The notes beneath the pieces are model-generated. The model saw only the letters and a program-made list of their open reading frames with translations, made no database searches and was not told where the DNA came from. A stretch of 64,000 nucleotides of DNA from a virus: positions 6,497-70,496 of the IMG/VR virus record IMGVR_UViG_3300045926_000283; one strand, 5' to 3'. A program made the translations under genes and the position numbers. Of the stretch, positions 2,956-63,997 are shown piece after piece; the stretch's first letter is position 1; every line of letters begins with the position of its first letter.

Positions 2956-3180
2956 TCAGGCGGCGCGGCGCCCCGCCCGTCTCTTCTTCTTCCGGAGCAG
3001 CGCCTCCAGCGGCACGCCGGTCAGGTCGTGGATCTTCAGCGCCAGCGGCAGCCGCGGCGCCCGTTTCCCATTGACGATCATCGACAGCGCCGACTGGGTG
3101 ATGCCCAGCCGCCACGCGAACACCTCCTGCGTCGTCTTGGTCGCGGCCAGGTAGGCTTTGAGCGACGGGTGCGGCGGCAT
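2956..3180 (-). CDS. Cro-like XRE HTH regulator
   Basis: TQEVFAWRLGITQSALSMIVNGKRAP; divergent from a second HTH gene. Confidence 0.85.
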   Translation of the reverse strand: MPPHPSLKAYLAATKTTQEVFAWRLGITQSALSMIVNGKRAPRLPLALKIHDLTGVPLEALLRKKKRRAGRRAA

Positions 3181-3189
3181 GACCGGCGG

Positions 3190-3219
3190 ACTCTAATGAC
3201 TCAGAGTTATCGCTGTCAA
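3190..3219 (-). promoter_or_regulatory. sigma70-type promoter for cro with an operator in the spacer
   Basis: Minus strand TTGACA-N18-TAGAGT, 9 nt before the ATG; AATGAC-N5-GTTATC at 3195-3211. Confidence 0.6.
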
Positions 3220-3352
3220 GCCCCACCCCCGCGGCCGAATCGGGCGGGGTGGGTCAGCGACGGCGTCTCACCGACAGTCGCTCACTGTCGGCGGCGGGAG
3301 AGGCGCAGCGGCAGGCGGGAAACCCGAAGCGCTAATGATATGCTTGTCTGCA

Positions 3353-3369
3353 TATCACTCTCTGTGATA
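3353..3369. promoter_or_regulatory. Perfect-arm operator TATCAC-N5-GTGATA
   Basis: Palindromic arms between divergent HTH genes; same architecture as lambda operators. Confidence 0.65.
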
Positions 3370-3426
3370 AATTCCCTCCCAAAAACACCACACACACAAC
3401 AGGACACAGCAACCACCACCCACCCT

Positions 3427-4170
3427 ATGCCCAGGACCGCGACACTGACCGATCAACTCTGTGAAGAGATTCAACGGCTCTGCGATCTGCGCGGCCTCAC
3501 GCAGCGCGACGTCGCCGAGCATCTCGACATCTCGCAGGCGTACGTCAGCCTCACCTTCCGCGGCGCGCGGCGAAAGAACTACTTCGAGGCGTGGGTGCGG
3601 CTGGCGCGGCTGGTCGGCTACCGCTTCAGCGCGCTCGTCCGGCTGGCGGAGCAGCAGCTGGCGCGTGAGGACAAGGCGCGGCGGAAGCGAGCGCGGGCGC
3701 GCACGGCGGTCCACCACGCGGCCGGCAGTGGCAAGGAGGAGACGGCGGGCGCACCGGTCGCGGCGGTCGCACGTACCGCTGAGGTCGCGCACCCCCGACG
3801 TAAAAAGATACAGGGGGGTCAGAAATCTGTTGCACCGTCGACGCCTGAACGTGTATCGTCCTCGACGCCGTTATCACACAGCGTTATAACCCAGGCGTCG
3901 TCGTCGGCGCGTTCCCAGGAGTCGATCGATGGCCAAGCCGCGTCCCGCTCCGGCGTTCCCTCGTCCACAGATGCTGCGCGTCGTGACTACCAGCGACGTC
4001 AGCGAGAAGCCGCCGCCGTCCTCGCAGCTGGCCTCCCCGGAGCCGCTGCTGCCGTGGGCCGAGTACGTGGGGCAAGCGGTCGGCCTGTCGCAAAAGCTCC
4101 TGGATCCAAAGCGCCCGTTCGAGCTGGAGCTGGTCGCGTGGCTGTGGCGCGCACTCGTCGTCGCGCTTGA
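3427..4170 (+). CDS. CI-like XRE HTH repressor with low-complexity C-terminus
   Basis: MPRTATL...RGLTQRDVAEHLDISQAYVSLTFRG; start chosen at ATG 3427. Confidence 0.7.
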   Translation: MPRTATLTDQLCEEIQRLCDLRGLTQRDVAEHLDISQAYVSLTFRGARRKNYFEAWVRLARLVGYRFSALVRLAEQQLAREDKARRKRARARTAVHHAAGSGKEETAGAPVAAVARTAEVAHPRRKKIQGGQKSVAPSTPERVSSSTPLSHSVITQASSSARSQESIDGQAASRSGVPSSTDAARRDYQRRQREAAAVLAAGLPGAAAAVGRVRGASGRPVAKAPGSKAPVRAGAGRVAVARTRRRA

Positions 4171-4285
4171 GTTCCTCCATCGGCATCACAGCCGCGCCGA
4201 GCAGCGGTACCTCCGACAGCTGATTCGGAAAGCCCTGTCGGGGACGGGGAAACTCGTCCTCAGCTGCCTGCTCGTCGCTAGTTGA
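3929..4285 (+). CDS. hypothetical protein
   Basis: GGAG RBS, typical codon usage; overlaps the repressor ORF tail. Confidence 0.55.
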   Translation: MAKPRPAPAFPRPQMLRVVTTSDVSEKPPPSSQLASPEPLLPWAEYVGQAVGLSQKLLDPKRPFELELVAWLWRALVVALEFLHRHHSRAEQRYLRQLIRKALSGTGKLVLSCLLVAS

Positions 4286-4476
4286 CGCCCCGACCCGGAC
4301 AGCCCGGTGGGCTGCCTCCGTCCGGCGGCGTCGCTCCTCGCCCCCCTCTAACTCCAGCTGAGCTTGCACCCTAGCCGCGCGAGCCTAGCTTGTGGTGCGT
4401 GGTCGCAAGCATCGCCATCCCAGCGTGTACGCTTGGTTGTCTCGTCCGGTCGGGTTTTCTAGCATCGGTGGCCATC

Positions 4477-4692
4477 ATGGTCACACGGCGAGTGTCGACG
4501 CGGGCGCGCGCACGGCAGGTGAACTTCCGGTTGCCGGGGGAGATCTGGCAGCGGCTCGACGCGACGGCGGGGCTGCTGGGCCTGCCGCAGTCGCGGATCG
4601 TCACCGACGCCCTGGTGCAGTACTTCCAGCAGCTGCCAGCGGAGACGCGGTCGCTGATCGACAAGACGATCGCGCTTCGGCAGAAGCACTGA
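4477..4692 (+). CDS. Ribbon-helix-helix DNA-binding protein
   Basis: QVNFRLPGEIWQRLDATAGLLGLPQSRIVTDAL. Confidence 0.7.
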   Translation: MVTRRVSTRARARQVNFRLPGEIWQRLDATAGLLGLPQSRIVTDALVQYFQQLPAETRSLIDKTIALRQKH

Positions 4693-7848: not shown

Positions 7849-8352
7849 TCAGCCCTCACTTTCGCCCCCCTCTTCCCCTCGCGGAATCCACCCATGCACC
7901 GGGCAGCCGGCGTGCCAGCCGTAGGGCTTCGGGCAGGTGCAGGGGACGTCGAGGGCGAGGTTCACTTCCTCGCCGCTGGGCTTGGCGTCGATCGCCCAGA
8001 ACCCAACCCCGGCCTGCTGCCGGATCGCCAGGAACTGGCGCGGGCTGGGGATGGTGTCAGACGGCTCCACGGCCTTCTTGGAGCGCGGGACGACCGGGTA
8101 GGCCATCAGGCCTATCTGGTAGACCTTTCGGCACCTGGGGCAGGCTAGACGCTGTGTGAGGGCATTGTAGGTGACCTCCCGGGCGCGGCGCGGCCGGCGG
8201 CGAACGCGGTTGGTCTCGTCGTCTCGGGAGCGGTGGCGCGTAGCGTCGAGCTGGGCGACGATGACGAGGCCGCAGCTCGGGCATTCGCAGGTGAAGCGGT
8301 CGATGCGGGCGAAGAAGCGGCTGGACGGCGGGACGGTCGGGACGTGGGGCAT
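7849..8352 (-). CDS. Zn-finger hypothetical protein
   Basis: CPSC, CPRC and CTC..CPVH motifs; GAGGAGG RBS. Confidence 0.7.
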   Translation of the reverse strand: MPHVPTVPPSSRFFARIDRFTCECPSCGLVIVAQLDATRHRSRDDETNRVRRRPRRAREVTYNALTQRLACPRCRKVYQIGLMAYPVVPRSKKAVEPSDTIPSPRQFLAIRQQAGVGFWAIDAKPSGEEVNLALDVPCTCPKPYGWHAGCPVHGWIPRGEEGGESEG

Positions 8353-15912: not shown

Positions 15913-16170
15913 CTACTCCGTCACCCGATCCCAGCTCCGCCACTCCGGCGCGTGAACCGTCCACGTCGTCCGTCGCTGGCCCTCCAGCGGAATCCCCAGC
16001 GTGTCCCACGTCGGGACCTCGCCCTTGTGCTCCTTGCAGTAGCGGCACGAGCAGCCGCCGTCGATCACCCGGCGCAGCTCGTAGGGGATCCGCACGTAGA
16101 CCGATCCGCGCCATACCCGGAGCACGTCCCAGCCTTGCAGGCTGATATTACACTCCGTCATATCCTCCAT
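15913..16170 (-). CDS. hypothetical protein
   Basis: CSCRYC; polypurine RBS. Confidence 0.65.
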   Translation of the reverse strand: MEDMTECNISLQGWDVLRVWRGSVYVRIPYELRRVIDGGCSCRYCKEHKGEVPTWDTLGIPLEGQRRTTWTVHAPEWRSWDRVTE

Positions 16171-16184
16171 CGCTCTCTCCCTCT

Positions 16185-16240
16185 GGAGTCGAAGACTCCG
16201 CGAAGGGCCTGAACCCTCGGCTCAGGCCCAACGCGCAATC
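16185..16240 (-). repeat. Structured intergenic element, copy E
   Basis: GATTGCG..GGGCCTGAGC-CGAGG-GTTCAGGCCC..CGCGGAGTC-TTC-GACTCC then RBS. Confidence 0.75.
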
Positions 16241-16259
16241 TCATCGACCCTGCTCTCGC

Positions 16260-16811
16260 CTACGGCCGTCTCACTTCCTGATCGTCCTCGACCTGCCACA
16301 CCCGGTACGGCGCTTTCTCCTCCTCGAACCAGTCATGGCCCAGGCAGTAGGTCTTCACCCCGCCCGCCTCGAACGCGTCCAGATCCCCCGCGCCCGGGCA
16401 GCACGGCGAGCAGAACCGCGCCGTGGTGTAGTACGGCGAGCGGATCACGTAGATCCCGAGGCTGCTCGTCTCCAGCACGTACCCCTCCGCCTCGTAGCGG
16501 TAGGTGTCCTCGCTCTCCTCGTAGCGGTCGTTGAAGCGATCCTCGACGTCGCCCCAGATGCCGCTGACGTGCTCCTCGACCTGTGCCGCGTCGGCAATGT
16601 CGAAGTCGTCGACCAGCACTCGGCTGAGCGCCAGCCGGATCTGGTCCTTGACCGCGTCGACCGCTGCCGCGTGCGTCAGGTTCTCGCCGCTCGTCCAGAT
16701 GTCCTGCGTGGCCTCTGGGTTCGGCGTGTGCGGGCTGATCACCCCGTACCGGATCCCGGTCGCGTGATCCACGTTGGCCAATCCCCGCCCATAGTCAATC
16801 CCTGCACTCAT
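16260..16811 (-). CDS. phage hypothetical protein
   Basis: GIDYG.G.AN.D..TGIRYGVI...CSPC.PGAGDL. Confidence 0.75.
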   Translation of the reverse strand: MSAGIDYGRGLANVDHATGIRYGVISPHTPNPEATQDIWTSGENLTHAAAVDAVKDQIRLALSRVLVDDFDIADAAQVEEHVSGIWGDVEDRFNDRYEESEDTYRYEAEGYVLETSSLGIYVIRSPYYTTARFCSPCCPGAGDLDAFEAGGVKTYCLGHDWFEEEKAPYRVWQVEDDQEVRRP

Positions 16812-16937
16812 CGCTCTCTCCTCTCGGGCCCGGATCGTCCTTCATCCGTCCCCCACAGGGCTCACGCGACCCACGCTGAGCCCTCTAGGCGACAGACCGG
16901 GCAGAGTCTCGCCCTGCCCGGACCAGATCGCTCCTTG

Positions 16938-17183
16938 CTAGGCCGCCTTGGTCTTCAGCTCCGCGTCGTTGGCCTTGATGAAGGCCTTGACCTGCTCGGC
17001 CATCGCCAACAGCTTCTCCCACTGCTCCCGGTACAGCGTGACCGGGAATCTGCCCAACCCATAGACGCTCAGTCCGCCCTTGGGGCTGACCTTGAGCGTG
17101 ACCTTGGGCGTGCGCGCGGCCTTCAGCCTCGCGTTCTCTGCGATCAGCCGTGCGATCTCCGCTTGCATCTGTTCGTTGCTCAT
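16938..17183 (-). CDS. small coiled-coil protein, first gene of the early array
   Basis: LKVSPKGGLSVYGLGRFPVTLYREQW; AGAGGAG RBS. Confidence 0.8.
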   Translation of the reverse strand: MSNEQMQAEIARLIAENARLKAARTPKVTLKVSPKGGLSVYGLGRFPVTLYREQWEKLLAMAEQVKAFIKANDAELKTKAA

Positions 17184-17196
17184 CTCTGCACTCCTC

Positions 17197-17741
17197 TGGG
17201 CTTCGATGGAAGCCCTAATGCCGTCTGGGCTATGAACCAGACTGCCGCATTTCAGGCGAGCTTCCCATGTAGGGTTCCCCTCGCCTGTCACCTGCGTCCG
17301 CGCGCGTACACAGCTCGCGCTGTGGGTGATACGCTCGCGGTGTGAGCGGTGCCTACTCCGGTGCCTGTGGGGGACTCAGGGTCGCGTGGTCGCCCGCGAC
17401 GGAAGGCTTTAAGACTCACTGGGCGTTTAGCGTGTGAGCGATCAGCGCCGTCGTAGGCTCGCCTGTCCTACCCGTTCTGCCGGTCTGGTCGTACTCCGGC
17501 TCCCCTGCCCGCCTTGGGTGTGGCCGTCGGCAAGGGCGTTTCGGCTATGGCTGCCTGCCTGTAGTCTCAGTGTCGGACGGCTACTGACTCCCCGGAATGG
17601 CTTCGTCGGGGCGGAGCGTTCGTCGTCCGGCATGCCTTGGGGCAGACCGCGTTTGTCAGAGAACTCGAACCCACCGCGTCCCGCAGGCGACCAAGGGCCC
17701 TGTCGGGGCACCGGCGAACCGGTGCGGAGCGGCGTGCTGCC
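17197..17741 (-). ncRNA. Putative long structured leader RNA
   Basis: No credible ORF; many hairpins including GCACCGG-UUCG-CCGGTGC; begins right after the sigma54-type promoter. Confidence 0.5.
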
Positions 17742-17749
17742 TGCCAAAT

Positions 17750-17767
17750 TTGCAGGCACCGTGCCAA
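17750..17767 (-). promoter_or_regulatory. sigma54 (-24/-12) promoter
   Basis: Minus strand TTGGCACGGTGCCTGCAA matches TGGCAC-N5-(T/C)TGCA with correct GG/GC spacing. Confidence 0.65.
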
Positions 17768-18124
17768 ACGCAAAAACGGCCGGTTTTCGGCACCTTGCGC
17801 CGTTTGTTCGCCTTGAAAATCTGCCGGTTTCGGTAGAAAAAACCGACTTTTGTCTGCCTGCAGGCAGATTGCACAGAATTGCACGGACGTCGTCCCGCTA
17901 ACTCCTTCGCTATCAACGAGTTCCGAGGACTGGTTCCGATAATCTAGGTTATGTTAACTAGCTCGGCTGTAGTGGTCCTGTAGGCCGTAGGACCAGGGCA
18001 TTGTCCGGGGGGTAGGCCCGCGCGACCTAAGGACATGTCCGGGACTCAGCACAATTTTTCTCACAAATTTGTCGCGCAATTTTTCGGCGCGCGAGCGATT
18101 ACTCTCTGTGATAGCCTCCCCCGC

Positions 18125-18337
18125 ATGAGCGAACAGATCGTCCGCACGCTGCAGAACGAGATCATCGACCTCGACGATCGCCTCAGTCGCCTCGCCGAGC
18201 GGGTGCGGACGGTCAACGAGCGGCTGCAGATCGACCCGGGCGGCAGCGATCGCCTCGATGCGATCGACGAAGCGCTCGTGCAGCTCGCGGCGCGCGTCGC
18301 CGCGCTCGAACGCGAGGTCGCCAGCCATGAGCGGTGA
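18125..18337 (+). CDS. coiled-coil hypothetical protein
   Basis: MSEQIVRTLQNEI; typical codon usage. Confidence 0.6.
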   Translation: MSEQIVRTLQNEIIDLDDRLSRLAERVRTVNERLQIDPGGSDRLDAIDEALVQLAARVAALEREVASHER

Positions 18338-18956
18338 TGGCGATCCGTTCGATCACAACGCGGAGTGTCGCTTCTGCGACGAGCAGGCGGGCCACCGCGC
18401 CGACTGCCCCTGGCTGCTGGCGCTGCAGCAGTGTGTGCAGGCGAAAGACGAGGAGCTGGTCAAGGCCAACGAGAAGGTCGAGGAGGCGCGTGAGGCGGCG
18501 CGCAGCTACGCGGCCGAAGTGGTCGAGTACGAGCAGTCCTTCGAGCGGTACCACAAGGCGTCGATGGCCCTGATGGACGCCTACAAGCGTGCCCACCCGG
18601 ACGTGCCGAAGGACGTCTGGCCCGACGTCGGTGTCGTCAACGCCTGGGCCGTCGATCAGATCGAGAAGCACCTGACCTACCTCGAAGCCGAGCAGATGAA
18701 GCACGAAGTCGGGGCGCTGCAGGCGTGGAAGGACGCCGTCATCGACGCCCTGGTGGTCGACTGCATCTACACCAATGAGCATGAGACCGACCCGCGCCAA
18801 GCGATTGCCGACCTGTGTGCGTGGGAGGTGAAGATCGCGCTCGACCCGGCGGTCAGCGAGCCGGTCGCGAAGCTGCATCAGCGCATCGCCGAGCTGGAAA
18901 ACGCGCTTGCCGCTGTCGAACGAGCCCTGCGCGACGAGCAAGAGCACCCGCGATAA
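18327..18956 (+). CDS. hypothetical protein
   Basis: CRFC..H..DCPW plus coiled coil. Confidence 0.65.
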   Translation: MSGDGDPFDHNAECRFCDEQAGHRADCPWLLALQQCVQAKDEELVKANEKVEEAREAARSYAAEVVEYEQSFERYHKASMALMDAYKRAHPDVPKDVWPDVGVVNAWAVDQIEKHLTYLEAEQMKHEVGALQAWKDAVIDALVVDCIYTNEHETDPRQAIADLCAWEVKIALDPAVSEPVAKLHQRIAELENALAAVERALRDEQEHPR

Positions 18957-19029
18957 CCTCCCGTCATCGCTGAGGGGGGAGGGGGGCTGGACAAACCCCA
19001 GCCTCGTCTGCGTATCCTGCCTGCCGTCC

Positions 19030-19401
19030 ATGTTCAAACGGCTGGCCGGCGCGTTCCTGCTGCGGCGCCTCACGCGCGATCTCTCCGCGATCAGCGCCGC
19101 GCTCGATCGCCAGAACGTCCTGCTCGCGCGTCTGGTCGACCACCTCTGCCCCGCCCCGCCCGACGATGCGCCCACCGTCGCCACCAGCACCGATACCGGC
19201 GTCACCTTCCTCGATCCGATCGAGATGGGCCTCTCGCTCGACTACATCCAGAAGATGCGCGCGGCGACCGGCCACACCCCCGACGACGAGGAGATCCTCG
19301 TCTACCTCGCCGACGAGAAGACCCACGACCTGCACCTGCGGATGGCGGAGCGTGAGGCCGATCTCGCACGCCTCACCGCGGCTCGGGAGCGTCGGCGATG
19401 A
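19030..19401 (+). CDS. hypothetical protein
   Basis: MFKRLAGAF; coupled to the next ORF. Confidence 0.65.
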   Translation: MFKRLAGAFLLRRLTRDLSAISAALDRQNVLLARLVDHLCPAPPDDAPTVATSTDTGVTFLDPIEMGLSLDYIQKMRAATGHTPDDEEILVYLADEKTHDLHLRMAEREADLARLTAARERRR

Positions 19402-19544
19402 CGGCGCCGCTCAGGTGTGCCCGCTGCCGTCGGCCGGTCCTCATCGAGTGGCGCCGCTCAGGCCCCTCGCGGGTGCCGCTGCGGGCGTTCCGCTGCCCGC
19501 ACTGTAAGCGTGCCCTCTACCAGCGGAAGGAGGCGCGCGGCTGA
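19398..19544 (+). CDS. 48-aa Zn-ribbon protein (not in ORF track)
   Basis: MTAPLRCARC...CPHCKRALYQRKEARG; ATGA and TGATG coupling. Confidence 0.6.
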   Translation: MTAPLRCARCRRPVLIEWRRSGPSRVPLRAFRCPHCKRALYQRKEARG

Positions 19545-20416
19545 TGAAAAGGAAGTCCGGTCTCGTCCCCGCCGCCGCGCGCGTGCCGCTCGCGCTCAGC
19601 GACGCCGACCAGGCCCTCTCCGATGAGGCGGTGCAGACCTTCGTCGCCGAGGTCGGCGGCCGCCACGCCCTCACCGGCGCGCTCGCGGTGGGCGCCACCT
19701 CGCCCGACGTGCAGCAGATCGTGCGCCTGCTGCTCGACCCGCGCTACGACCAGACCTCGCTCCCGCGTCTCTGCCGCCTCGCCGGCCTGACCGTCGCCGA
19801 CTTCTTCGTCGCTTACCGCAAGGCGCTGGTCGCGCGCTCGCACATCGCTGCCACGCATCTGGTCGCCGGGCAGATCCTCACCGTCGTCCAGGACATCCTC
19901 CACCGCGCCGCGCCGCATCACGTCCCGTGCGACGCCTGCTACGGCTGCGGCTCGATCACGCCGTCGCCGACGCGGCAGGTCCCGAACCCCTCACCCGGGC
20001 CGTGCCCGCGGTGCCAGGGCAGGGGGCAGATCACCCTCCTGCCCGATCTCGATCGGCAGAAGGTCGCGCTCGAACTCGCGCAGCTCACGCAGAAGAGCGG
20101 AGGCATCGTCGTGCAACAGCAGACCACCGTCACCCAGCCGCAGCGGCCGCTCCAGGCGCCCGGCGCCCTCGAACAGCTCCAGCAGGCGGTCAGCCAGATC
20201 CTCTACCACGAGCCGATCACCCTCAGTCCCGACGCCGACGAACCGCCCGCCGAGGTCGACGAGCCGCCCGCCGACGACGACGCAGAAGACGAGCCCGAGG
20301 ATAGCGAGCAGCCGGACCCCTCCGACGCCGAAGCGCCGCCGCCCGAGCGCGTCTTCGACGAGCCGCCCAACGTGGCCCAACCCCTTCGCAGCCACCCCGG
20401 CCCCGATGCTGCCTGA
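19544..20416 (+). CDS. putative terminase small subunit with CxxCxGxG zinc module
   Basis: Position before terL; CDACYGCG/CPRCQGRG; acidic tail. Confidence 0.5.
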   Translation: MKRKSGLVPAAARVPLALSDADQALSDEAVQTFVAEVGGRHALTGALAVGATSPDVQQIVRLLLDPRYDQTSLPRLCRLAGLTVADFFVAYRKALVARSHIAATHLVAGQILTVVQDILHRAAPHHVPCDACYGCGSITPSPTRQVPNPSPGPCPRCQGRGQITLLPDLDRQKVALELAQLTQKSGGIVVQQQTTVTQPQRPLQAPGALEQLQQAVSQILYHEPITLSPDADEPPAEVDEPPADDDAEDEPEDSEQPDPSDAEAPPPERVFDEPPNVAQPLRSHPGPDAA

Positions 20417-20506: not shown

Positions 20507-22789
20507 ATGTACGACCCGCGGATCATTGAGGCGGTCGAGGCCCGCCTCCTGCAGCAGCCGTCGCTGCGCCTGCAGTTCCCCGACGGCATCCCGCGCTACT
20601 CGGTCGCCGACTCCGCGGCGCTGACCGCGACCTTGATGAACGCCGTCGACGAGGACAACCGTGTCGCGCGTCCGCTCACCGAGGACGAGCAGGCGTTCAT
20701 CCGCGCGACCAAGCTCAGGGTCACCTTCGACTTCCCCTACTTCGCCGAGCGCTTCGCCTATATTGATGATCAGGGCTCGGGCCTCCGCCCGCTCTACCCG
20801 CTCTGGGAGTCGCAGCACTTCGTCCTCAAGGCGCTCGGCCGGCTCGAAGTCAGCCGCGCCAGCACGACGCATCCCGACGGCCTCCTGGTGAACGTGCTCA
20901 AGGCGCGGCAGCTCGGCGTCTCGACCCTCGCCGAAACCCTGGTCGCGCACCGCCTCCTCACCCAGCCGCACGTCCGCGCCATCTCCGGCGCCGACGTCGA
21001 GGAGCAGGCCGGCTACCTCTTTCGTATGGTGGTCCGCATCTACGACGAACTCCCCTGGTTCCTCAAGGTCGATCGCCTCTACTTCAACAAGAATCGCGAG
21101 CTGACCCTCAGCAACCAGAGCTTCCTGAAAACCGCGTGGGGCAAGTCCACCCGCGGCGCCCTGCAATCAGTGACCGGCCAGGAAGGCACCAAGGGCGCGA
21201 TCGGCCGCGGCCAGACCTTCGGCGTCGTCCACATCTCGGAACTCGCCACCTGGGACAACCCGCAGCAGCTCGACACAGCGCTCTTCCCCGCGATCCCGAT
21301 GTCGCGCCTCACCCTGGTCGTCCTCGAATCGACCGCCGAGTATGCCGGCGACTGGTGGCACAAGCACTGGCTCACCACCGCCGACGGTGACGGCCGCTTC
21401 ATCAACGTCTTCATCCCGTGGTACGCCGAGCCGACCAAGTACTCCCTCCCCGCGCCCCTCGACTGGACGCCCCTGACCACCACCACGCAGCACGCCACCA
21501 AGTGCGAGACCGACTCGCCGCGCTGGTTCGACGGCAAGACCGTCACCCTCTCCCGCGATCAGCTCTACTGGTACGAGCGCACCCGCGCCTTCTACGAGAA
21601 GAAGGGGGAACTCTACAAGTTCTTCAAGGAGTACTGCGCCGACGATCAGGAGTGCTTCCAGTACGCCGGCCGCTCGGTCTTCACCCTCGACCAGCTCGCG
21701 ACGATCGACCGCGCCGGCAGCCAGAAGCCGCTCCTCGATGTCTGGATGGTCGAGCCCGCGCGCGAGATCGCCGAGCTGCGCCAGGTCCGCACCGACGACG
21801 AGCCGGCCTCCACCGTGCGCCGCCCGGTGCCGCCGCTCAGCCCGCGCCTCGCCCAGACCGCCTCCCCGCTCGCGCATCTCACCTTCCCGGTGCCGCCCGG
21901 CTACGGCTTCCACCGCCTCTCGCCCGCGGCGCTCAAGGCCCTGCCCTCGCTGCGCCAGTCGGTCCTCTCGATCTGGGAGTATCCGCGCCCCCGCGGCACC
22001 CGCCGCTACGTCCTCGCGGCCGACGTCTCTGACGGCCTCGGCCAGGACTACTCGGTCGTCGACGTGATCCGCCTCCCGACCATCGAGGAACCCGCCGAGC
22101 AGGTCGCGCAGTACATCACCAATCGCCTCGACCCCAAGCAGCTCGCCTTCGTCTGCGACGCGATCGGCCGGCTCTATCCCGACGAAGACGGTGTGGAGGC
22201 GCTCGCCGCGATCGAGACCAACGGCCACGGCCTCGCCACCCAGGACACGATGCAGCTCCATCTCGGCTACTCCTCGTTCTACGTCTGGGAGTACGCCGAC
22301 TCCGCCACCCCCGAGCGGCGCTACTCGACCAAGATCGGCTGGGTCACCACCAACCGCACCCGGCCGCTGCTGCTCGCCAGCTTCTACGGCGCGATCCTCG
22401 CCGAGGACGCGATCACCGCCCAGCCCGACTTCATCCTCAACTCGCCGATCACGCGCGGCGAGCTGCGCCACTTCATCACCGAGTCGACGATTGGCGAAGC
22501 AGAAGCCGCCCGCGGGCAGCACGACGACTGCGTGATGGCCGCCGCCATCGGCTACTACGTCGCCTGGCGGATGGCCGGCGGCGAGATCGAGCCGATCGCC
22601 GAGCGCCGTCGCCGCCGTGCCGCGCTGCGCGCCCGCGCCGCGACCGAACGCCAACCGGTCGGCGACTACCGCAACACCGGCCTCACTATCGAGGAAGCCG
22701 ATCATCACCAGGAGGACGACGATGAGTTCGTCGACGACGTCTCCGCCAACCCCGGCGCGCTCTTCTTCGACGAGCGGCAACGGATCTAA
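20507..22789 (+). CDS. terL: Terminase large subunit
   Basis: LKARQLGVST, VVHISE, VLESTA, ADVSDG..DYS, IETN, HDD motifs. Confidence 0.92.
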   Translation: MYDPRIIEAVEARLLQQPSLRLQFPDGIPRYSVADSAALTATLMNAVDEDNRVARPLTEDEQAFIRATKLRVTFDFPYFAERFAYIDDQGSGLRPLYPLWESQHFVLKALGRLEVSRASTTHPDGLLVNVLKARQLGVSTLAETLVAHRLLTQPHVRAISGADVEEQAGYLFRMVVRIYDELPWFLKVDRLYFNKNRELTLSNQSFLKTAWGKSTRGALQSVTGQEGTKGAIGRGQTFGVVHISELATWDNPQQLDTALFPAIPMSRLTLVVLESTAEYAGDWWHKHWLTTADGDGRFINVFIPWYAEPTKYSLPAPLDWTPLTTTTQHATKCETDSPRWFDGKTVTLSRDQLYWYERTRAFYEKKGELYKFFKEYCADDQECFQYAGRSVFTLDQLATIDRAGSQKPLLDVWMVEPAREIAELRQVRTDDEPASTVRRPVPPLSPRLAQTASPLAHLTFPVPPGYGFHRLSPAALKALPSLRQSVLSIWEYPRPRGTRRYVLAADVSDGLGQDYSVVDVIRLPTIEEPAEQVAQYITNRLDPKQLAFVCDAIGRLYPDEDGVEALAAIETNGHGLATQDTMQLHLGYSSFYVWEYADSATPERRYSTKIGWVTTNRTRPLLLASFYGAILAEDAITAQPDFILNSPITRGELRHFITESTIGEAEAARGQHDDCVMAAAIGYYVAWRMAGGEIEPIAERRRRRAALRARAATERQPVGDYRNTGLTIEEADHHQEDDDEFVDDVSANPGALFFDERQRI

Positions 22790-24801: not shown

Positions 24802-25041
24802 GTGCAGTACCAGGACGCGCTCAATCGCGTCCTTGCCGCCTCTCGCGACGAGCCGCACCGCCTGGGCGCCGCCGACGAGCCATGTCCCTGCTGGCGCTGC
24901 GTCGCGCACCGCCTCGTCCTCGACATCGCCAACAGCAAAGAAGGCGAGAACGCGGAGTTCCGCGTCCACCTCGCCGCCACCCGCCGCCGCGCCCGTAAGA
25001 AGGCTGAAGCCGATCTTCATCTGAGGACACGCCGTGGCTGA
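24802..25041 (+). CDS. hypothetical protein
   Basis: CPCWRC; overlaps the portal start. Confidence 0.5.
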   Translation: MQYQDALNRVLAASRDEPHRLGAADEPCPCWRCVAHRLVLDIANSKEGENAEFRVHLAATRRRARKKAEADLHLRTRRG

Positions 25042-27184
25042 CTTCTCTTCATCCGGTCTCCTCGATCTGCCGCTCACCTCCGCCGAGTCCCTCCAGCACG
25101 GCGACCCGAAAGTCCTCGGCTGGCTGCGCGAGTGGATCCAGGAGGGCGACGCGATCAACCGCGCCGACCCCTCCTACGACATCATCACCCGCGCGCAGGA
25201 GTACATCGTCGGCGAGCAGCTCTCGCCCGAGCGCTGCAAGCTCAAATACCTGCCGCAGGTCACCATCAACGAAACGCGCAAGGCGATGCAGGCCCACGTC
25301 TCCGCGATCACCGATCTCCGCCCCGTCGCCGGCTGGAAGGCGAACCCCGAGTATCAGGTCCAGGCCGATCTCCTCAACAAGTACCTCCTCAGCGAGTGGA
25401 TCACCACGATGATGGATCTCGACCTGGGCGACTGCGTGAAGTACGCCCTCGCCGGAGGCACCGGCGATCTGGTCATCGACTGGGATCCGCACGCCCCGCA
25501 GGGCGGCGCGCACCAGCTCTCCGCCCGCGATCCGCGCGACACCCTGCCCCTGCGCCCCTCCTTCGGCCGCTCCTGCCAGCTCTGGGAAGGCGTCTGCTTC
25601 CGCGAGGAGCACACGGTGAACGTCCTGCGCGGGATGTACCCGGCGAAGGCGCAGCTCTTTCGCTCGGCGTCCGACTCGGTCCTCGGACGGGTGATGGGCC
25701 GCTTCCGCGTCGGCCTCTCGCGCCTCATCTCACCGGCCGATCCGCTCGACACGCTCGGCGGCACCGCCGCGACCCAGCGCAAGGCGCGGATGGGATCGCT
25801 CGTCCTCTACCGCGCCTACTTCCGCGACCGCACGCGCAACCTCACCGACCGCCCGATCCCGATGGGCACGCCGGGCTCCAACTGGGCCTACACCGTCCAA
25901 CCGCGCCAGCCGCTCTACCCGCGCGGCCGCCTGCTCGTCGCCACCGAGGACGCGATCATCTACGACGGGCCGCAGACCTACTGGCACGGGATGTTCCCCT
26001 TCTGCCGCCTGAAGCTCTGGTCGCTGCCCTGGCAGTTCCTCGGCATCCCGCTGTTCAACGATCTCCTCCCGCTCCAGGACGCGATCAACGACACCGTGCA
26101 GGATGTCCGCCTCGGGATGCAGCAGTGGACCAACCCCGACATCACCTACAACCGCAACGCGGTCTCCGAGTCCACCATGAAGCTGATGGACCCGCGCCGC
26201 GCCGGCAAACGCGTCAAAGTGATGCCCGGGTTCGGCGATCCGTGGAAGAAAGAAGACGGCCCCAACCCGCAGATCCTCTCGATGGGCCTCGACCTCTGGG
26301 ACCGCCTCACCCAAAAGTTCGCCGACCTCTCCGGCACCGCCAACCTCTCGGCGCTCCTCCAACTGCGCCAGCTCCCTTCCGCCGACACGATCCAGAAGTA
26401 CTACGAGGCGCTCACCCCCGAGATCCGCCAGGAAGCGCGGCAGGTCGAACTCTTCCTGCGCGACTTCTCCGAGATGATCAAAGTCAATTACTTCCAGTTC
26501 CTCTCCGAGTCGAAGCGCATCATGATCCTCGGCCAGGGCGGGCGCACGCTCTCCGACTTCGACTACGACCCCGACACCCTGGTGCCCGCTCTGCTCCCCG
26601 GCCAACCCGGCTACACCCCCGAACTCGACGCCAACACCACCACCCGCGACCAGCGCGCGCAGTACTTCCACAAGCAGTTCGTCTTCGTCGTCGCGCCGAA
26701 CAGCGTCCTCTCGATCGATGCGCAAGAGCGGAAGATGATGCGGGTGCAGCTCGCGCGCATGGGCTACTACGACTTCTGGTCGCTGCACGAGACGCTCGAA
26801 ACGCCCAACGTCGGCGCGCCGCCGTCCATCCCACTTCCTCCGCTCGACGCGCCTCCTCCCGGCATCCTCGAAGGGATGCTGCAGCAGCTCGCCGCCAACC
26901 CGATGGGGATCCAGGCGATGGCCGCGGGCGCGATGCCCTCCCTCCCGCAGTACTCCGACCCGGTCACCGGCCGCACCTTCACGCTCGATCCGGCCTCGGG
27001 CCAGCTCCTCGAAATCCGCGTCCCGACCACCGTCACCGAACGCCTCTCCGCGCAGCAGATGCTCGGCATCGGCCAGACGGTCAGTCCGAGTGGCAGGAAG
27101 GCCTCCGGTCAGTCTCCGCCACAACAAGAAACGAAGAATGACGAACCAGGCGGGCGTCAGACGATCACGGAGTCGCCTAAGTGA
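25034..27184 (+). CDS. Portal protein
   Basis: 716 aa downstream of terL; YWHGMFPF..W...GI....LLPLQDAIN, as in P22-like portals. Confidence 0.8.
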   Translation: MADFSSSGLLDLPLTSAESLQHGDPKVLGWLREWIQEGDAINRADPSYDIITRAQEYIVGEQLSPERCKLKYLPQVTINETRKAMQAHVSAITDLRPVAGWKANPEYQVQADLLNKYLLSEWITTMMDLDLGDCVKYALAGGTGDLVIDWDPHAPQGGAHQLSARDPRDTLPLRPSFGRSCQLWEGVCFREEHTVNVLRGMYPAKAQLFRSASDSVLGRVMGRFRVGLSRLISPADPLDTLGGTAATQRKARMGSLVLYRAYFRDRTRNLTDRPIPMGTPGSNWAYTVQPRQPLYPRGRLLVATEDAIIYDGPQTYWHGMFPFCRLKLWSLPWQFLGIPLFNDLLPLQDAINDTVQDVRLGMQQWTNPDITYNRNAVSESTMKLMDPRRAGKRVKVMPGFGDPWKKEDGPNPQILSMGLDLWDRLTQKFADLSGTANLSALLQLRQLPSADTIQKYYEALTPEIRQEARQVELFLRDFSEMIKVNYFQFLSESKRIMILGQGGRTLSDFDYDPDTLVPALLPGQPGYTPELDANTTTRDQRAQYFHKQFVFVVAPNSVLSIDAQERKMMRVQLARMGYYDFWSLHETLETPNVGAPPSIPLPPLDAPPPGILEGMLQQLAANPMGIQAMAAGAMPSLPQYSDPVTGRTFTLDPASGQLLEIRVPTTVTERLSAQQMLGIGQTVSPSGRKASGQSPPQQETKNDEPGGRQTITESPK

Positions 27185-58041: not shown

Positions 58042-61032
58042 TCAGGCGATCACTCTCGCCAGATCTGACCAGTCGTCTTCATCCTCGATCTCCATCGGTT
58101 CCGGTACCCAGTCGTTGTCGTCGTCGGGAATCTCGATCGGCGTCATCGCCTGCCAATCCGGCCCGGCCTTCGCGGCGATGCCGATCCGGACGTATTCCCC
58201 CGGCGCCCACGGCAGCGCCTGCTCGACCACCGGCCGGCGCATCTCTTGGCAGACGATCCGCACCACCCGGTCCCACACCGTGAGCGGGATCTCCAAGAGC
58301 AGCGAGTCGTGGATCGGGGCTCTCAGCGGCGTCTGCCCGAAGTAGCAGTCGCCGATGTAGGAGGGCGCACGCGGGTCGGCGAACAGCCTGAGCATCGCCT
58401 CCTTGAGGATCGCGGCGGCGATCGACTGCGGGAAGAACGCGAGGCAGCGCTTGCCGTCCTCGCCCAGGCTCACCCGGAACGGCTGGCCGTTGATCATCGC
58501 CACCGGAGGAGGCTGCCCGCTCTTCTGCGCGCGCGCCAGCAGTCGGTAGTACTGCGCCTGCGTCAGTCGCCGGTAGGTGAACACCGACCAGAACCAATGC
58601 TTGTAGTGAAACGGGTGCTCGTTCCCGCCGAGATAGTGCTGCCGGCCGGCGCGCTCCTGCGTGGCGTGCTGCCAGCTCGCGACCTTCGGCGCCATCCGCT
58701 CGAAGATCTGCGCGAACTTCTCCGCCTTCTGGAGCGTCGGGAAGAGGTGCGGGAACTGCAACACCATCCCATTCACCGTCAGTCCGTAGCTCCTACCGTG
58801 GACGTAGCGCTTCGCCGGGTCATAGACGTCGTGGTGCTCGGACTTCATCTTCGCGAACAGCTCGCGCAGCTCGGCGTCGCTGGCCTGCGGGTCGTACGGC
58901 TGTCCCAGGACGTGCGTCACCAGCGCGCTGTGTACGCCCAGCTTCGCGAGGCGGTAGTACTCCGGGTCGCCCGCGCACCAGCCGGTCTCGACCGCCTCGA
59001 TCGCCGCGTAGTCGACTTCGAGCAGCCGGCAGCCCGGGCCGGCGACGATGCACTTCCTGAACCCGGCGGCGAGGCCCTCGGGGCCTGATTTATCAGCGAC
59101 GACGTTGGTGATGTTGGGATCGACGTAGCTCAGTCTGAGGGTGCTCGGCTTGAAGGTCGGGACCGGGTGCAGCCGATCCTGATCATCCAGCCGTCGCTCG
59201 CAGCCCTCGACGTAGGTCCCCTTCACCTTGTTCACCGCGCGGTAGTTCAGCACCGCGGCGTAGAAGGGATCGCCGCTCCTGGCTAGTCGTTCGAGGGTCT
59301 CGCGGTTGGTCGACTCTTCGCTCTTGGTCTTCTTCGCCCGCCCGGGTTTATGCCCGCGGTGTTTGATGTAGGCGAGGACCTGCGGAACGCTGTCCGGGTT
59401 GAAGGGCTCGCGCCAGTACCAACGACTGACCGTCGCCACCACCAGAGACAGTCGAGGAGGATCAGGCGCAGGATCTCGATCTCGCTGGTGAGCGCAGCGA
59501 TGCCGTCGTTGAACTTCGAGCGCGCCGCAGCGGTCGCAGCGGAAGACTTCGCGGAGGACGAGCTTCTCGACGATCTCGGCTTTGGCATATAGCTCCTGTT
59601 TGACCTCGGAGGTCGGTTTGCCTTTTCGGACGGTGCCCTTCCTGGTGAACGCGCTCGCCTTCACGTGCAGCACCTCGGCGAGCGGCTTTCGGGTCAACCC
59701 CTGCTTCGGCGTGAGGGGCTGCAGGCTCTCGGGGACCGAGGTCTGGATCTTCGCGAGCTGCTCGCGGGCCTTGTCGACCAGCTCCGCCTTGAAGGTCAGG
59801 AGCCGCTCGCGATCGACCTGCACGCCAATCAGCTGCGCGGGCCGGAGCACCTTGGTCAGCAGGTCGTGCGTGTGCCGCATCGCGATCGGGTACTGCCCCT
59901 CGCGCACCAGGTCGGTGATGATCCCGAAGCCGGCGCGATGCGTCTGCAGCGCGTCGATCGCGCCGTAGCGCGCCGGCTCGCGGTCCGCCAAGTGTTTCCA
60001 CGGGCCGAAGGTGGAGTAGAAGGGAGCCCAGAACCCTAGGCCTCTCGGCAGGTCGCTCTGCAGCACGTGCGCGAGCCACATCAGATCGACGCAGCGCACC
60101 GAGTCGGATTCGAGCAGCAGGTGCGCATGAACCTGCCGGACGAAGTCATACTCCCGGTTCCACATCCAGATGTGGCCGGGCGAGGCGTACAACCTGGCGA
60201 GATGGGAGAGGTACGGTTCGGCGTGCGGGACGGTGACGCCTTCCTCGGTCGAGCAGGCGACGTTGTGCCGCAGCAGCTGGAAGGATCGATCCTCAGTGGT
60301 GATCTCACCTTCGTCCTGCCCGCCCGCTTTGTCCGGGGTCTCGACGTCGGAGGAGATCGGGTACGCGTCTGGGTCCTGCTGGCGTGCGGCGACGACCTGA
60401 TCGACCCACGCGGCGAACCACTCGACCGGCGGATCGACCACCAGCGAACTGTGATCGACCGGTCGTCCGTGATCGCGCGCCTGCTCAGCGCGCTGCAAGT
60501 CCCAGAGGACCGCACCGATCAAGTTGTGCGCGCCACGCTGCAAGTGGCTCGGGTGGTACGTCGGGACCACCCAGAAGCGATCGGTCGGATCTCTGACGAT
60601 GGCGCCGTGCCAGTCCTGGATGCGAACCTTCTTGTGCCCGAGCAGGTGCATCACCCGCTTGAGCGCCGTCGCCCCCAGCGTCACGACGACCTTCGATCGC
60701 CCGTCGAGCGTTTCGTCGACGTACTTGCAGTGGTTGATCGCGCTGAAGAACCACGGGGCACGCTCGTCGAACCAGTCGTTGGGCGGATGACATCGGCAGC
60801 AGTTGTCGAGGCGGTGCGCCTCGCGCGACCAGCCGAGCATGTTGAGCAGCCGCGCGAACATCCCGCCGGCATCGCCGACGAGCGGACGGCCGGTGAGCGC
60901 TTCGACCTTTCCAGCTGATTCGGCGACGAACGCGATGTCAGACCCGAGCGGCCCCTCGCCCGGGACGTAGCCCTCACCCTGTTCGTAGAGCGAACACCCA
61001 ACGCACGCGGGCGGCTTGGTCAGCCTCGCCAT
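58042..61032 (-). CDS. DNA polymerase family A fused to N-terminal family-4 uracil-DNA glycosylase
   Basis: CVGC..GEG..AESAG..GRPLVG.AG..TYHPS; exonuclease DVET; DYAAIE, AKRYVHGRSYG, IHDS. Confidence 0.9.
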   Translation of the reverse strand: MARLTKPPACVGCSLYEQGEGYVPGEGPLGSDIAFVAESAGKVEALTGRPLVGDAGGMFARLLNMLGWSREAHRLDNCCRCHPPNDWFDERAPWFFSAINHCKYVDETLDGRSKVVVTLGATALKRVMHLLGHKKVRIQDWHGAIVRDPTDRFWVVPTYHPSHLQRGAHNLIGAVLWDLQRAEQARDHGRPVDHSSLVVDPPVEWFAAWVDQVVAARQQDPDAYPISSDVETPDKAGGQDEGEITTEDRSFQLLRHNVACSTEEGVTVPHAEPYLSHLARLYASPGHIWMWNREYDFVRQVHAHLLLESDSVRCVDLMWLAHVLQSDLPRGLGFWAPFYSTFGPWKHLADREPARYGAIDALQTHRAGFGIITDLVREGQYPIAMRHTHDLLTKVLRPAQLIGVQVDRERLLTFKAELVDKAREQLAKIQTSVPESLQPLTPKQGLTRKPLAEVLHVKASAFTRKGTVRKGKPTSEVKQELYAKAEIVEKLVLREVFRCDRCGALEVQRRHRCAHQRDRDPAPDPPRLSLVVATVSRWYWREPFNPDSVPQVLAYIKHRGHKPGRAKKTKSEESTNRETLERLARSGDPFYAAVLNYRAVNKVKGTYVEGCERRLDDQDRLHPVPTFKPSTLRLSYVDPNITNVVADKSGPEGLAAGFRKCIVAGPGCRLLEVDYAAIEAVETGWCAGDPEYYRLAKLGVHSALVTHVLGQPYDPQASDAELRELFAKMKSEHHDVYDPAKRYVHGRSYGLTVNGMVLQFPHLFPTLQKAEKFAQIFERMAPKVASWQHATQERAGRQHYLGGNEHPFHYKHWFWSVFTYRRLTQAQYYRLLARAQKSGQPPPVAMINGQPFRVSLGEDGKRCLAFFPQSIAAAILKEAMLRLFADPRAPSYIGDCYFGQTPLRAPIHDSLLLEIPLTVWDRVVRIVCQEMRRPVVEQALPWAPGEYVRIGIAAKAGPDWQAMTPIEIPDDDNDWVPEPMEIEDEDDWSDLARVIA

Positions 61033-62385: not shown

Positions 62386-62707
62386 CCCGCCGCCCAATCG
62401 CCGCCCAATCGAATCCAATCTGGATCAAAAACCCCGGTTGCCCGGGGGTGACCGGGAGTTGCCCTGGACGCCGGTTAACTACTTGTGGCCGTTGAGGTAA
62501 GGGCTAGGCGGGGGTGGGTGGGGGAACTCGGTGGCAAGGGGGGCACAATCGCCTCCAGCCGACTGAAAATCGTAGTGTCGACAGTTCGATTCTGTCCCTC
62601 GCCACCACCCGCAACCCACTGACCCACCAGCACTTGCCTCACTTCTGCTCCTGACGACGACCGACCGGCTGACCAGTCCCGCCGCCCAATCGCCGCCCAA
62701 TCGAATC
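62386..62707 (+). repeat. 30-bp direct repeats flanking the attP core (arm-type sites)
   Basis: CCCGCCGCCCAATCGCCGCCCAATCGAATC at 62386-62415 and 62678-62707. Confidence 0.75.
62560..62607 (+). other. attP core = 3' half of tRNA-Phe(GAA)
   Basis: CGACTGAAAATCG anticodon arm, GTTCGATT T-loop, ends CCA; 5' half absent; next to the integrase. Confidence 0.85.
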
Positions 62708-62716
62708 AGGTTTGGA

Positions 62717-63997
62717 TCACGCGCCGCCCACGCCGCCGCCCAACGCCCGCTTCATGCCGTTGTCGCCCAGTTCGGCGTCCGACAGCCCGAGGTAGCGCTG
62801 CGTCATCTTCCACGAGCTGTGGCCCAGCCAGAGCGACAGCTTGTTGATGTCCTTCGGGCTCATCGCGTCCCACCAGCGTGAGGCGCACTCGCGTCGGAAG
62901 TCCCGGAAGTGCAGGCCGGTCTCCATCACGGTCGCGACGACCTGCTTCGTCCGGATCTCGTGGGCGCGGATCGCGACCGCCTCCCAGGCGGTCCGGTCCT
63001 CGTAGACCTTGCCGTCGTCGTCGCCGAAGGGATGTCCCTCCGGCCCGAGGAACCGCCGCTTCTTCAGGATCTCGCGCAGCGTCTCCTGCTCGACCCAGAT
63101 CGGGCGTTCCTTCTTGCTCTTCCCCTTCGTCAGCTTGACGATCCACTCCTTGTAGTCGATGTGCTTGTTCTGCACACGGTCCAGTTCGCTGCCCCGCGCA
63201 CCGAGTCCCAGCGCTCCTCGAATCCGCCGTTCGATCGCCGCCCCGGCGAACTTGTGTCGCCAGTTGTTGAACTCCTGGCACGCCTGCAGCAACGCCTGCT
63301 CCTCCCCGTCGTGCAGCCGGCGTCCGCGCGGCTCTTCATCCTCGACGTCGATCGTGACGCCGAACTCGTGGAACGGATCCTTGGTCAGGAGCGGCGGCGT
63401 CTGGTGCTGACACCAGTGCATGAAGTGTCGCTGCCGCTGCAGCACGCGATCGACCGCGACCAACCCACGCGGCTTGCCCCAGCCCTGCTCACGACCGGTG
63501 CCATCGGCGAGGACATCGGCCGTCTCCTGCCGCCGCCGCCGGTGCGCCGGTCGCCAGCCCTTGGTGAAGTCGTCTTTGAACTGCTGCACCAGCGCGACGT
63601 GCTCCAGCTCCACGAGCGGCCGGGTCGCGCCGTAGTAGAGCACCAGATGCCGCATCTCGCTCGTCGCTGATCCGCGCGCGGCCTTGGCGAGCTTCTTCAG
63701 CTCCCACGTCATGTAGTCGCGCATCGCCACCACCAGGGCGTGCGCGTTGGGTGCCGGGGCCGGAGGCGGCACGCGCGGATCGCCGCCATCGCGCCACTCC
63801 TTGGCGATCTCCTCGGTCTCGATCTTCTCGGCTTCGGTCTTCGTCTTCACATGCGGTCGGTTCCCGCGCGCGAGCACGAAGTCGTCGATGTAGACGGAGC
63901 GCCGCACGCCCTTGACCATCAGCCGGCTCTCCCAGCTGTGCTCGCAGCGATGGTCGGCGTAGGGGCAGGTCTTGCCGCAGGCTTTGCGGACGCTCAT
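62717..63997 (-). CDS. int: Tyrosine integrase
   Basis: GARGSEL, K, FRDFRRE, LGHS, TQRYL. Confidence 0.9.
   Translation of the reverse strand: MSVRKACGKTCPYADHRCEHSWESRLMVKGVRRSVYIDDFVLARGNRPHVKTKTEAEKIETEEIAKEWRDGGDPRVPPPAPAPNAHALVVAMRDYMTWELKKLAKAARGSATSEMRHLVLYYGATRPLVELEHVALVQQFKDDFTKGWRPAHRRRRQETADVLADGTGREQGWGKPRGLVAVDRVLQRQRHFMHWCQHQTPPLLTKDPFHEFGVTIDVEDEEPRGRRLHDGEEQALLQACQEFNNWRHKFAGAAIERRIRGALGLGARGSELDRVQNKHIDYKEWIVKLTKGKSKKERPIWVEQETLREILKKRRFLGPEGHPFGDDDGKVYEDRTAWEAVAIRAHEIRTKQVVATVMETGLHFRDFRRECASRWWDAMSPKDINKLSLWLGHSSWKMTQRYLGLSDAELGDNGMKRALGGGVGGA

Follow-up and report, generated by a model that had tools for sequence, protein, structure and literature searches.

The central non-coding region of the phage genome described here carries a sigma-54 (RpoN)-type -24/-12 element at 17751-17766 on the minus strand. 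Judged by its sequence and by comparison with related loci, this element is probably (roughly 0.6) a functional promoter within a divergent control region. For this promoter we infer sigma-54 binding, the position of the start site, dependence on an activator and the identity of the enhancer.

The stretch of DNA that was analysed, referred to below as the window, comprises 64,000 nucleotides (bases 6497-70496 of a 70,496-bp virus record rated complete by CheckV) and has a GC content of 67.7%. Analysis of codon-position GC gave two opposed gene blocks diverging from one large non-coding control region of ~940 bp, about 1.5% of the window. Codon-position GC periodicity was absent across 17190-18120, and the GC content fell to 52-57% over 17740-18120, exactly upstream of the -24/-12 motif. 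The leftward block, a putative early operon in the preliminary description cited below, consists of small ORFs with unassigned functions from 17183 down to ~4700, and beyond these of replication and recombination genes for an AAA_25 protein, a PIF1-like helicase, a family-A DNA polymerase with a UDG domain and an integrase. The polymerase gene, at 58042-61032 on the minus strand, encodes a 996-aa protein in which the uracil-DNA-glycosylase-superfamily domain is N-terminal to the polymerase domain. In the rightward block the first gene is followed by R164, R290, the large terminase and the portal. A blastn search of 16000-20000 against 50,697 phage records gave no match, and a search of the atlas with the portal returned viral clusters only. 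The features of the control region and its surroundings are as follows.

16938..17183, minus strand: first leftward gene, 81 aa, with an ATG at 17183 and an AGGAG ribosome-binding site upstream
17184..17738, minus strand: predicted GC-rich untranslated leader, ~557 nt, from the predicted start to the first gene
17739..17741, minus strand: predicted transcription start, ~11-12 nt downstream of the -12 GC, by sigma-54 geometry
17739..17757, unstranded: inverted repeat GCCTGC-N7-GCAGGC, candidate operator, part of inverted repeat I3
17751..17766, minus strand: sigma-54 (RpoN)-type -24/-12 element, TGGCACGGTGCCTGCA, one mismatch to TGGCACGNNNNTTGCW
17772-17776, 17784-17787, 17816-17819, 17837-17842 and 17848-17851, unstranded: A/T tracts, read from the sequence
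17853..17868, unstranded: perfect 16-bp palindrome TCTGCCTGCAGGCAGA, candidate activator or repressor site, centred ~120 bp upstream of the predicted start
17868..17887, unstranded: two 10-bp direct repeats, ATTGCACAGA and ATTGCACGGA, family D16
17932..17962, minus strand: conserved AT-rich element of the GGTTAACATAACC ... TTATCAGAC type, ~190-220 bp upstream of the promoter
17999..18095, plus strand: conserved anchor, in which CATTGTCCG precedes GC-rich sequence and then phased ATTTTT repeats, immediately before the first rightward gene
18125..18337, plus strand: first rightward gene, encoding a 70-aa coiled-coil protein, assigned by GC3 periodicity
20507-22789, rightward block: large terminase, PHROG 2 match
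25034-27184, rightward block: portal, P22-like lead

A preliminary description of this DNA had proposed a -24/-12 element directed into the leader, and the element was found at that position with both dinucleotides exact. Read on the minus strand (TTGGCACGGTGCCTGCAA is the reverse complement of 17750-17767), the GG lies at 17764-17765 and the GC at 17752-17753, separated by exactly 10 bp, as the invariant sigma-54 dinucleotides require. TGGCACGGTGCCTGCA agrees at 11 of the 12 specified positions with the extended consensus TGGCACG-N4-TTGCW, reportedly of the type given by Barrios and colleagues in 1999, and the sole mismatch is a C for the first T of TTGC, giving a -12 that reads CTGCA, not TTGCA. 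The element sits in non-coding DNA and is oriented into the leftward unit, whose first gene, on this strand too, begins at 17183. Sites were scored as mismatches to the sigma-54 consensus with the GG and GC held fixed. Scanned in this way for the RpoN site, the window and the whole 70,496-bp record contained TGGCACGGTGCCTGCA as the only match with at most one mismatch, and a sigma-70 consensus scan of 16800-18400 returned 0 promoters. A second sigma-54-like 16-mer, TGGCACGCCGGCTGCC, with two mismatches, lies at 7902-7917 on the minus strand inside the coding region 7849-8352 (minus strand) and is probably a chance match.

Because 32 of 100 dinucleotide shuffles of the window also yielded at least one match at up to one mismatch (mean 0.37), the single match is not significant alone; what lifts it beyond chance is its placement in the sole large divergent intergenic region together with a family-wide, spacing-specific enrichment. 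It could be argued from these shuffles, from the length of the leader and from flanks that are not conserved that the 16-mer of this phage is a non-functional chance match and that the family signal comes from real sites in other members only. We consider this quite improbable, because a chance match within the control region is expected only ~0.005 times given the small share of the window that it occupies, and because the related locus L010 carries in the same control region and in the same orientation a 16-mer, TGGCACGATGCCTGCA, that is identical to TGGCACGGTGCCTGCA at 15 of 16 positions within unrelated flanks.

Comparison of the control region was based on 62 related loci from viral contigs, retrieved with the terminase at 58-73% amino-acid identity, many of which come from records of ~70 kb. 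R164, R290 and the terminase are conserved in these relatives, unlike the genes of the leftward block. Apart from short elements, no nucleotide similarity to the relatives was seen in the leader and intergenic DNA. Eight matches with at most one mismatch were found in the 1.48 million strand-bases of the 62 loci, all of them in the homologous control region (L010, L013, L043, L044, L048, L057, L053 and L060), and the site in L053 is perfect. After removal of the redundant L017, L030 and L057, 27 non-redundant control regions of 700 bp were compared with dinucleotide shuffles. They contained 7 matches at up to one mismatch against 0.20 in the shuffles (maximum 2 in 300) and 16 at up to two mismatches against 2.25 ± 1.56 (maximum 8), counts that cover related sequences and are effectively somewhat smaller since L043 and L044 share a site. 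These numbers were obtained with the canonical N4 spacer, while spacers of N0-N3 and N5-N9 gave only 0-2 and 1-7 matches, respectively. In the spacing test all 7 of the 7 matches of the whole loci at up to one mismatch fell inside the control regions, which hold 4% of the bases. Of the 20 TGGCAC occurrences inside the control regions, 11 have a TGC after them at the sigma-54 distance, compared to 5 of 342 outside. As a statement about sequence, the control-region signal far exceeds what base composition explains.

The control region of the window is rich in inverted repeats. The 16-mer holds the near-palindrome TGGCAC-G-GTGCCt, the inverted repeat GCCTGC-N7-GCAGGC overlaps the -12 element and the predicted start, and CTGCCTGC, which recurs at 17551, 17737, 17854 and 17860, is present in 7 copies in the window against 3.4 expected, with 4 of these within 17551-17867. 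TGGCAG/CTGCCA-like repeats also surround the L010 and L044 sites, and iterated CTGGCAG-type repeats occur in the same region of some relatives. These repeats are consistent with an operator for a dimeric DNA-binding protein of phage or host, with TGGCA/TGCCA or CTGCC/GGCAG half-sites; the likeness to sigma-54 sites would then be incidental and the operon would be driven by an unrecognised promoter of another type. Such an operator is unlikely to account for the pattern among the relatives, whose best sites (TGGCACGCCTCTTGCC, TGGCACGCCGCTTGCC, TGGCACGGGTCTTGCC and TGGCACGAAGGTTGCT) are non-palindromic yet keep the -12 TTGC at the exact spacing. A change of one base in the spacer collapses the enrichment, and a palindromic operator would not show such a relation to TTGC.

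The preliminary description had named conservation in related phages as a test of the promoter. The spacing-specific enrichment and the near-identical site in L010 speak for conservation, but only 13 of the 27 control regions carry a site with up to two mismatches, and its position and orientation vary, with leftward sites in 7 regions and rightward sites in 8. Besides L010, leftward sites at this threshold were found among the 27 anchored regions in L007, L026, L034, L042 and L044, and also in L018 and L022, both of which lack the exact anchor. The L010 site lies 87 nt upstream of the ATG of the first leftward gene, which encodes a TIGR03299 phage/plasmid-like protein. Where the first gene could be read in L042, L018 and L036 the ATG was ~55-90 nt downstream of the site; the gap from motif to ATG is 54 nt in L042, compared to the 557-nt leader of the window. 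The rightward sites are mostly of the form TGGCACG-N3-CTTGCC and face the packaging and structural block, and the window has no such site. Leftward sigma-70-like promoters with a perfect TTGACA were found in 6 of the 27 regions (L001, L002, L005, L021, L027 and L034), among which only L034 also has a leftward sigma-54-like site, and in L042 the sigma-54-like match lies inside the spacer of a sigma-70-like TTGACA-N17-TAGGCT arrangement. These combinations suggest an exchange of promoter modules in a mosaic control region. With presence and promoter type mixed in this way, the site does not count as fixed and orthologous across the family.

In L053 the perfect consensus TGGCACGAAGGTTGCT lies on the plus strand within 637-790, with three palindromes of the GGATAC-TTG-GTATCC type, two of them imperfect, within 100 bp upstream; downstream of it comes a short ORF that has a GAGG ribosome-binding site. 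Judged by sequence, no other member of the family combines promoter and operators in so clean an arrangement.

Sigma-54 characteristically forms closed complexes that stay stable without activation, and the holoenzyme might be bound at these sites but never or rarely activated, so that the closed complex acts as a roadblock or architectural placeholder that silences neighbouring promoters rather than driving the operon. The occurrence of sites in both orientations, the position of the L034 and L042 sites beside or inside sigma-70-like promoters, the lack of a conserved enhancer and the lack of an enhancer-binding protein gene in the phage and in 25 related records would all agree with such a role. 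We nevertheless think it very doubtful, because no sigma-70-like promoter that could be regulated was detected in the window, L007, L010 or L044, and the sites of L010, L042, L018 and L036 face first genes at normal promoter distances.

The observation in the preliminary description that the window encodes no enhancer-binding AAA+ protein holds more widely. Neither PF00158 (Sigma54_activat) nor PF04552 (Sigma54_DBD) had a match in the whole 70,496-bp record, and PF00158 had none in 25 related records, of which 10 were at least 90% complete. With no activator gene in the phage, the activator must come from the host if the promoter acts in the textbook manner, and we infer that the leftward operon is gated by a host activator or signalling pathway. 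A search for terminase relatives in 185,579 species genomes, with the single protein and with a 21-sequence alignment, found none and thus gave no host lead from prophages, and a homology search with the cold-shock-domain protein found 3 proteins and no host lead. The record of the relative L011 is classed as a provirus. Among the matches listed, the distant terminase relatives from cultured phages all have Gram-negative hosts. The rpoN gene is common in Gram-negative bacteria. It is nearly absent from Actinomycetota according to PMC12316311. The motif itself hints at an rpoN-bearing host, probably a Gram-negative soil bacterium.

The sequence upstream of the element contains the A/T tracts, the perfect 16-bp palindrome and the TTGCAC direct repeats (17869-17874 and 17879-17884, inside the 10-bp direct repeats) where the preliminary description had placed them. 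The A/T tracts are helically phased, spaced by multiples of ~10.7-11 bp, and form the direct-repeat family D1 with spacings of 44 and 22 bp; from this phasing, the DNA from 17772 to 17851 is probably intrinsically bent. No match to the IHF consensus with at most one mismatch was found between the promoter and the palindrome, and the only such match lies at 17911-17923. The proposal that the palindrome and the TTGCAC repeats form an upstream activator site fared less well, since neither is conserved in the relatives that bear the motif and the palindrome is no rarer than chance: TCTGCCTGCAGGCAGA is the sole 16-bp palindrome in the window, and mononucleotide shuffles average 2.7. Other direct repeats occur ~100-130 bp upstream of the leftward sites in L018 (GATGCGAG) and L026 (GCGAGGTT), and a CTGGCAA-N9-TTGCCAG palindrome abuts the -24 element of L010.

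Two further elements of the control region are shared with relatives. The first is the AT-rich element of ~30 bp, with the structure GGTTAACATAACC-N7-9-TTATCAGAC and a palindromic GGTTA-ACA-TAACC core. With one mismatch allowed, the window holds a single copy of GTTAACATAA, and 19 of the 62 related loci have it too. Every copy lies in the central control region, and no locus has more than one apart from L060, which has two. Among the relatives, the AT-rich element lies at 4875-4905 in L010, at 470-500 in L044 and at 4840-4870 in L048, and it is present in others. In ten loci it lies ~100-200 bp upstream of leftward sites, and this distance plausibly fits an enhancer. With respect to the terminase gene the element points one way in some relatives and the other way in others, and it lies downstream of some rightward sites, which argues for another role; the element could be an origin, a cos or pac site or the site of a regulator.

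The second shared element is the anchor, the exact 9-mer CATTGTCCG on the plus strand upstream of the terminase gene, which the window has in common with 33 of the 62 loci. It is followed by ~40 nt of GC-rich sequence, by CCCGACNTCAGC and by two to three ATTTTT tracts with a period of ~11-13 bp. This layout resembles a terminase recognition site, and the anchor is possibly a packaging site or a late promoter or leader. In many relatives the anchor is preceded by three to four iteron-like direct repeats, such as CAGCTGGCGGG in L010 and GCGCGCCAGCG in L001 and L005.

The start site of a sigma-54 promoter lies ~11-12 nt beyond its -12 GC in the direction of transcription. A start near 17740, as predicted from this geometry, and a gene start at 17183 together give the untranslated leader of 557 nt. 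The leader had no match in Rfam, either at gathering thresholds over the window or at E<=1 over 17200-18200, where the only match in the scan was a eukaryotic snoRNA model with an E of 0.78, which is not credible. The fold of the leader, with a z-score of -2.5, is only moderately better than that of shuffled sequences. A 117-aa ORF with a GTG start was considered as the first leftward gene and was rejected, because the GC3 periodicity begins at ~17190 and the AGGAG precedes the ATG at 17183. Three soil metatranscriptome runs contain small parts of 16000-19500. Contigs from these RNA libraries at 17360-17508, 17544-17699 and 17568-17718 lie inside the predicted leader and none crosses 17740, and one contig at 17825-17975 lies upstream of the predicted start and could be carried-over DNA or another transcript; being unstranded, shallow and possibly derived from DNA carry-over, these contigs show neither a start nor expression.

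In the 81-aa protein of the first leftward gene, an N-terminal coiled coil precedes KVTLKVSPKGGLSVYGLGRFPVTLY. The protein matched no Pfam, PHROG or NCBIfam family and had no significant match among solved structures (best E 0.045). Its relatives, more than 537 at 58-70% identity, come from metagenome contigs that range in GC from 41 to 72%, with contigs of 239 kb and 778 kb among them. At the nucleotide level, the homology shared with 80 metagenome loci that encode this protein was limited to ~16940-17200, and only 1 of the 80 kept loci has a site with up to two mismatches within 800 bp upstream on the gene strand, so the promoter belongs to the phage control region and not to the gene family. 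The 183-aa leftward gene, used as a query, retrieved a single distant viral relative (41% identity), which was of no use for assessing conservation of the promoter.

No transcription comes from a sigma-54 promoter before a signal-activated ATPase has opened it. If 17751-17766 is such a promoter, host RNA polymerase with sigma-54 would bind it as a closed complex, and transcription would begin near 17740 only once an ATP-hydrolysing enhancer-binding protein makes contact from upstream. The transcript would run leftward through the 557-nt leader into the 81-aa gene and the long block of small ORFs. The activator would be encoded by the host, as the phage has none, and looping would make use of a bend provided by the phased A/T tracts (17772-17851). 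The activator might bind at 17853-17887, where the palindrome and direct repeats lie, or at the AT-rich element (17932-17962).

Canonical sigma-54 promoters such as glnAp2, Pu and pspA have a remote enhancer and bent intervening DNA. The promoter region of the window resembles these in its GG-N10-GC core with TGGCACG and TGCA, in its non-coding position upstream of an operon, in the repeats and palindrome ~110-145 bp upstream and in the phased A/T tracts where IHF or an intrinsic bend usually acts. It differs in being phage-borne, in the lack of an encoded enhancer-binding protein, in its 557-nt leader and in having no IHF consensus between palindrome and promoter. In phage lambda a divergent control region contains PL and PR with their operators. 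As in a lambda-type region, two opposed blocks of the window diverge from one intergenic region and inverted repeats overlap the promoter; unlike it, the window has no detected sigma-70 consensus promoter, the rightward block holds packaging and structural genes, and the gene for an HTH protein of the Cro/CI type lies ~14 kb away instead of adjacent. This HTH_3 gene (2956-3192, minus strand, 78 aa) stands opposite small plus-strand genes at 3929-4285 and 4390-4692, and 2956-4692 forms a second divergent region, which may be the immunity switch.

The element is of a known kind and its setting is unusual. The view that gating by sigma-54 would be unusual for a phage is fair in that few cases are documented, but it has a precedent in the Pseudomonas phage YuA, for which a sigma-54-like promoter, P015, is described (bioRxiv 10.1101/2023.10.13.562163, citing Ceyssens et al. 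2008). For YuA there are reported promoter-trap and TSS data. The present phage would resemble YuA in its dependence on host RNA polymerase and in a sigma-54-like promoter besides sigma-70-like ones, a likeness at the level of description. YuA is cultured in Pseudomonas, whereas the evidence here is comparative only, and the sites described here differ in lying within a central divergent control region and in recurring in both orientations across an uncultivated family. In a full-text literature search for phage sigma-54 promoters YuA was the sole precedent found, and the search returned no paper on sigma-54 sites that recur in the control region of a phage family.

An operon behind a sigma-54 promoter would hand the decision on its expression to a host sensory pathway. 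A broader reading can be offered tentatively, in which these uncultivated soil phages of ~70 kb with P22-like portals wire their central divergent control region to host sigma-54. The leftward block, the rightward packaging and structural block or both would start at -24/-12 promoters, sigma-54 and sigma-70 modules would be swapped among relatives and no member would carry an enhancer-binding protein. The licence for phage development would then come from enhancer-binding-protein signalling in the host, triggered by nutrient, envelope or RNA-damage stress, or from an unrecognised kind of phage activator. If this were true of the family, both arms of the control region would be wired to host sigma-54. 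The family also provides a testable set of natural promoter variants, with sigma-54 leftward, sigma-54 rightward and sigma-70 arrangements.

In the leftward block, the integrase gene (62717-63997, minus strand) is adjacent to a segment at 62390-62710 that contains the 3' fragment of a tRNA. The fragment comprises the T-arm and the acceptor end with a terminal CCACCA (~62565-62607), and ARAGORN called an implausible 101-nt tRNA-Cys at this position. It is flanked by a direct repeat of ~26 bp (CGCCGCCCAATCGCCGCCCAATCGAATC) with copies at ~62390 and ~62680, and the fragment with its flanking repeats is probably an attP with integrase arm sites.
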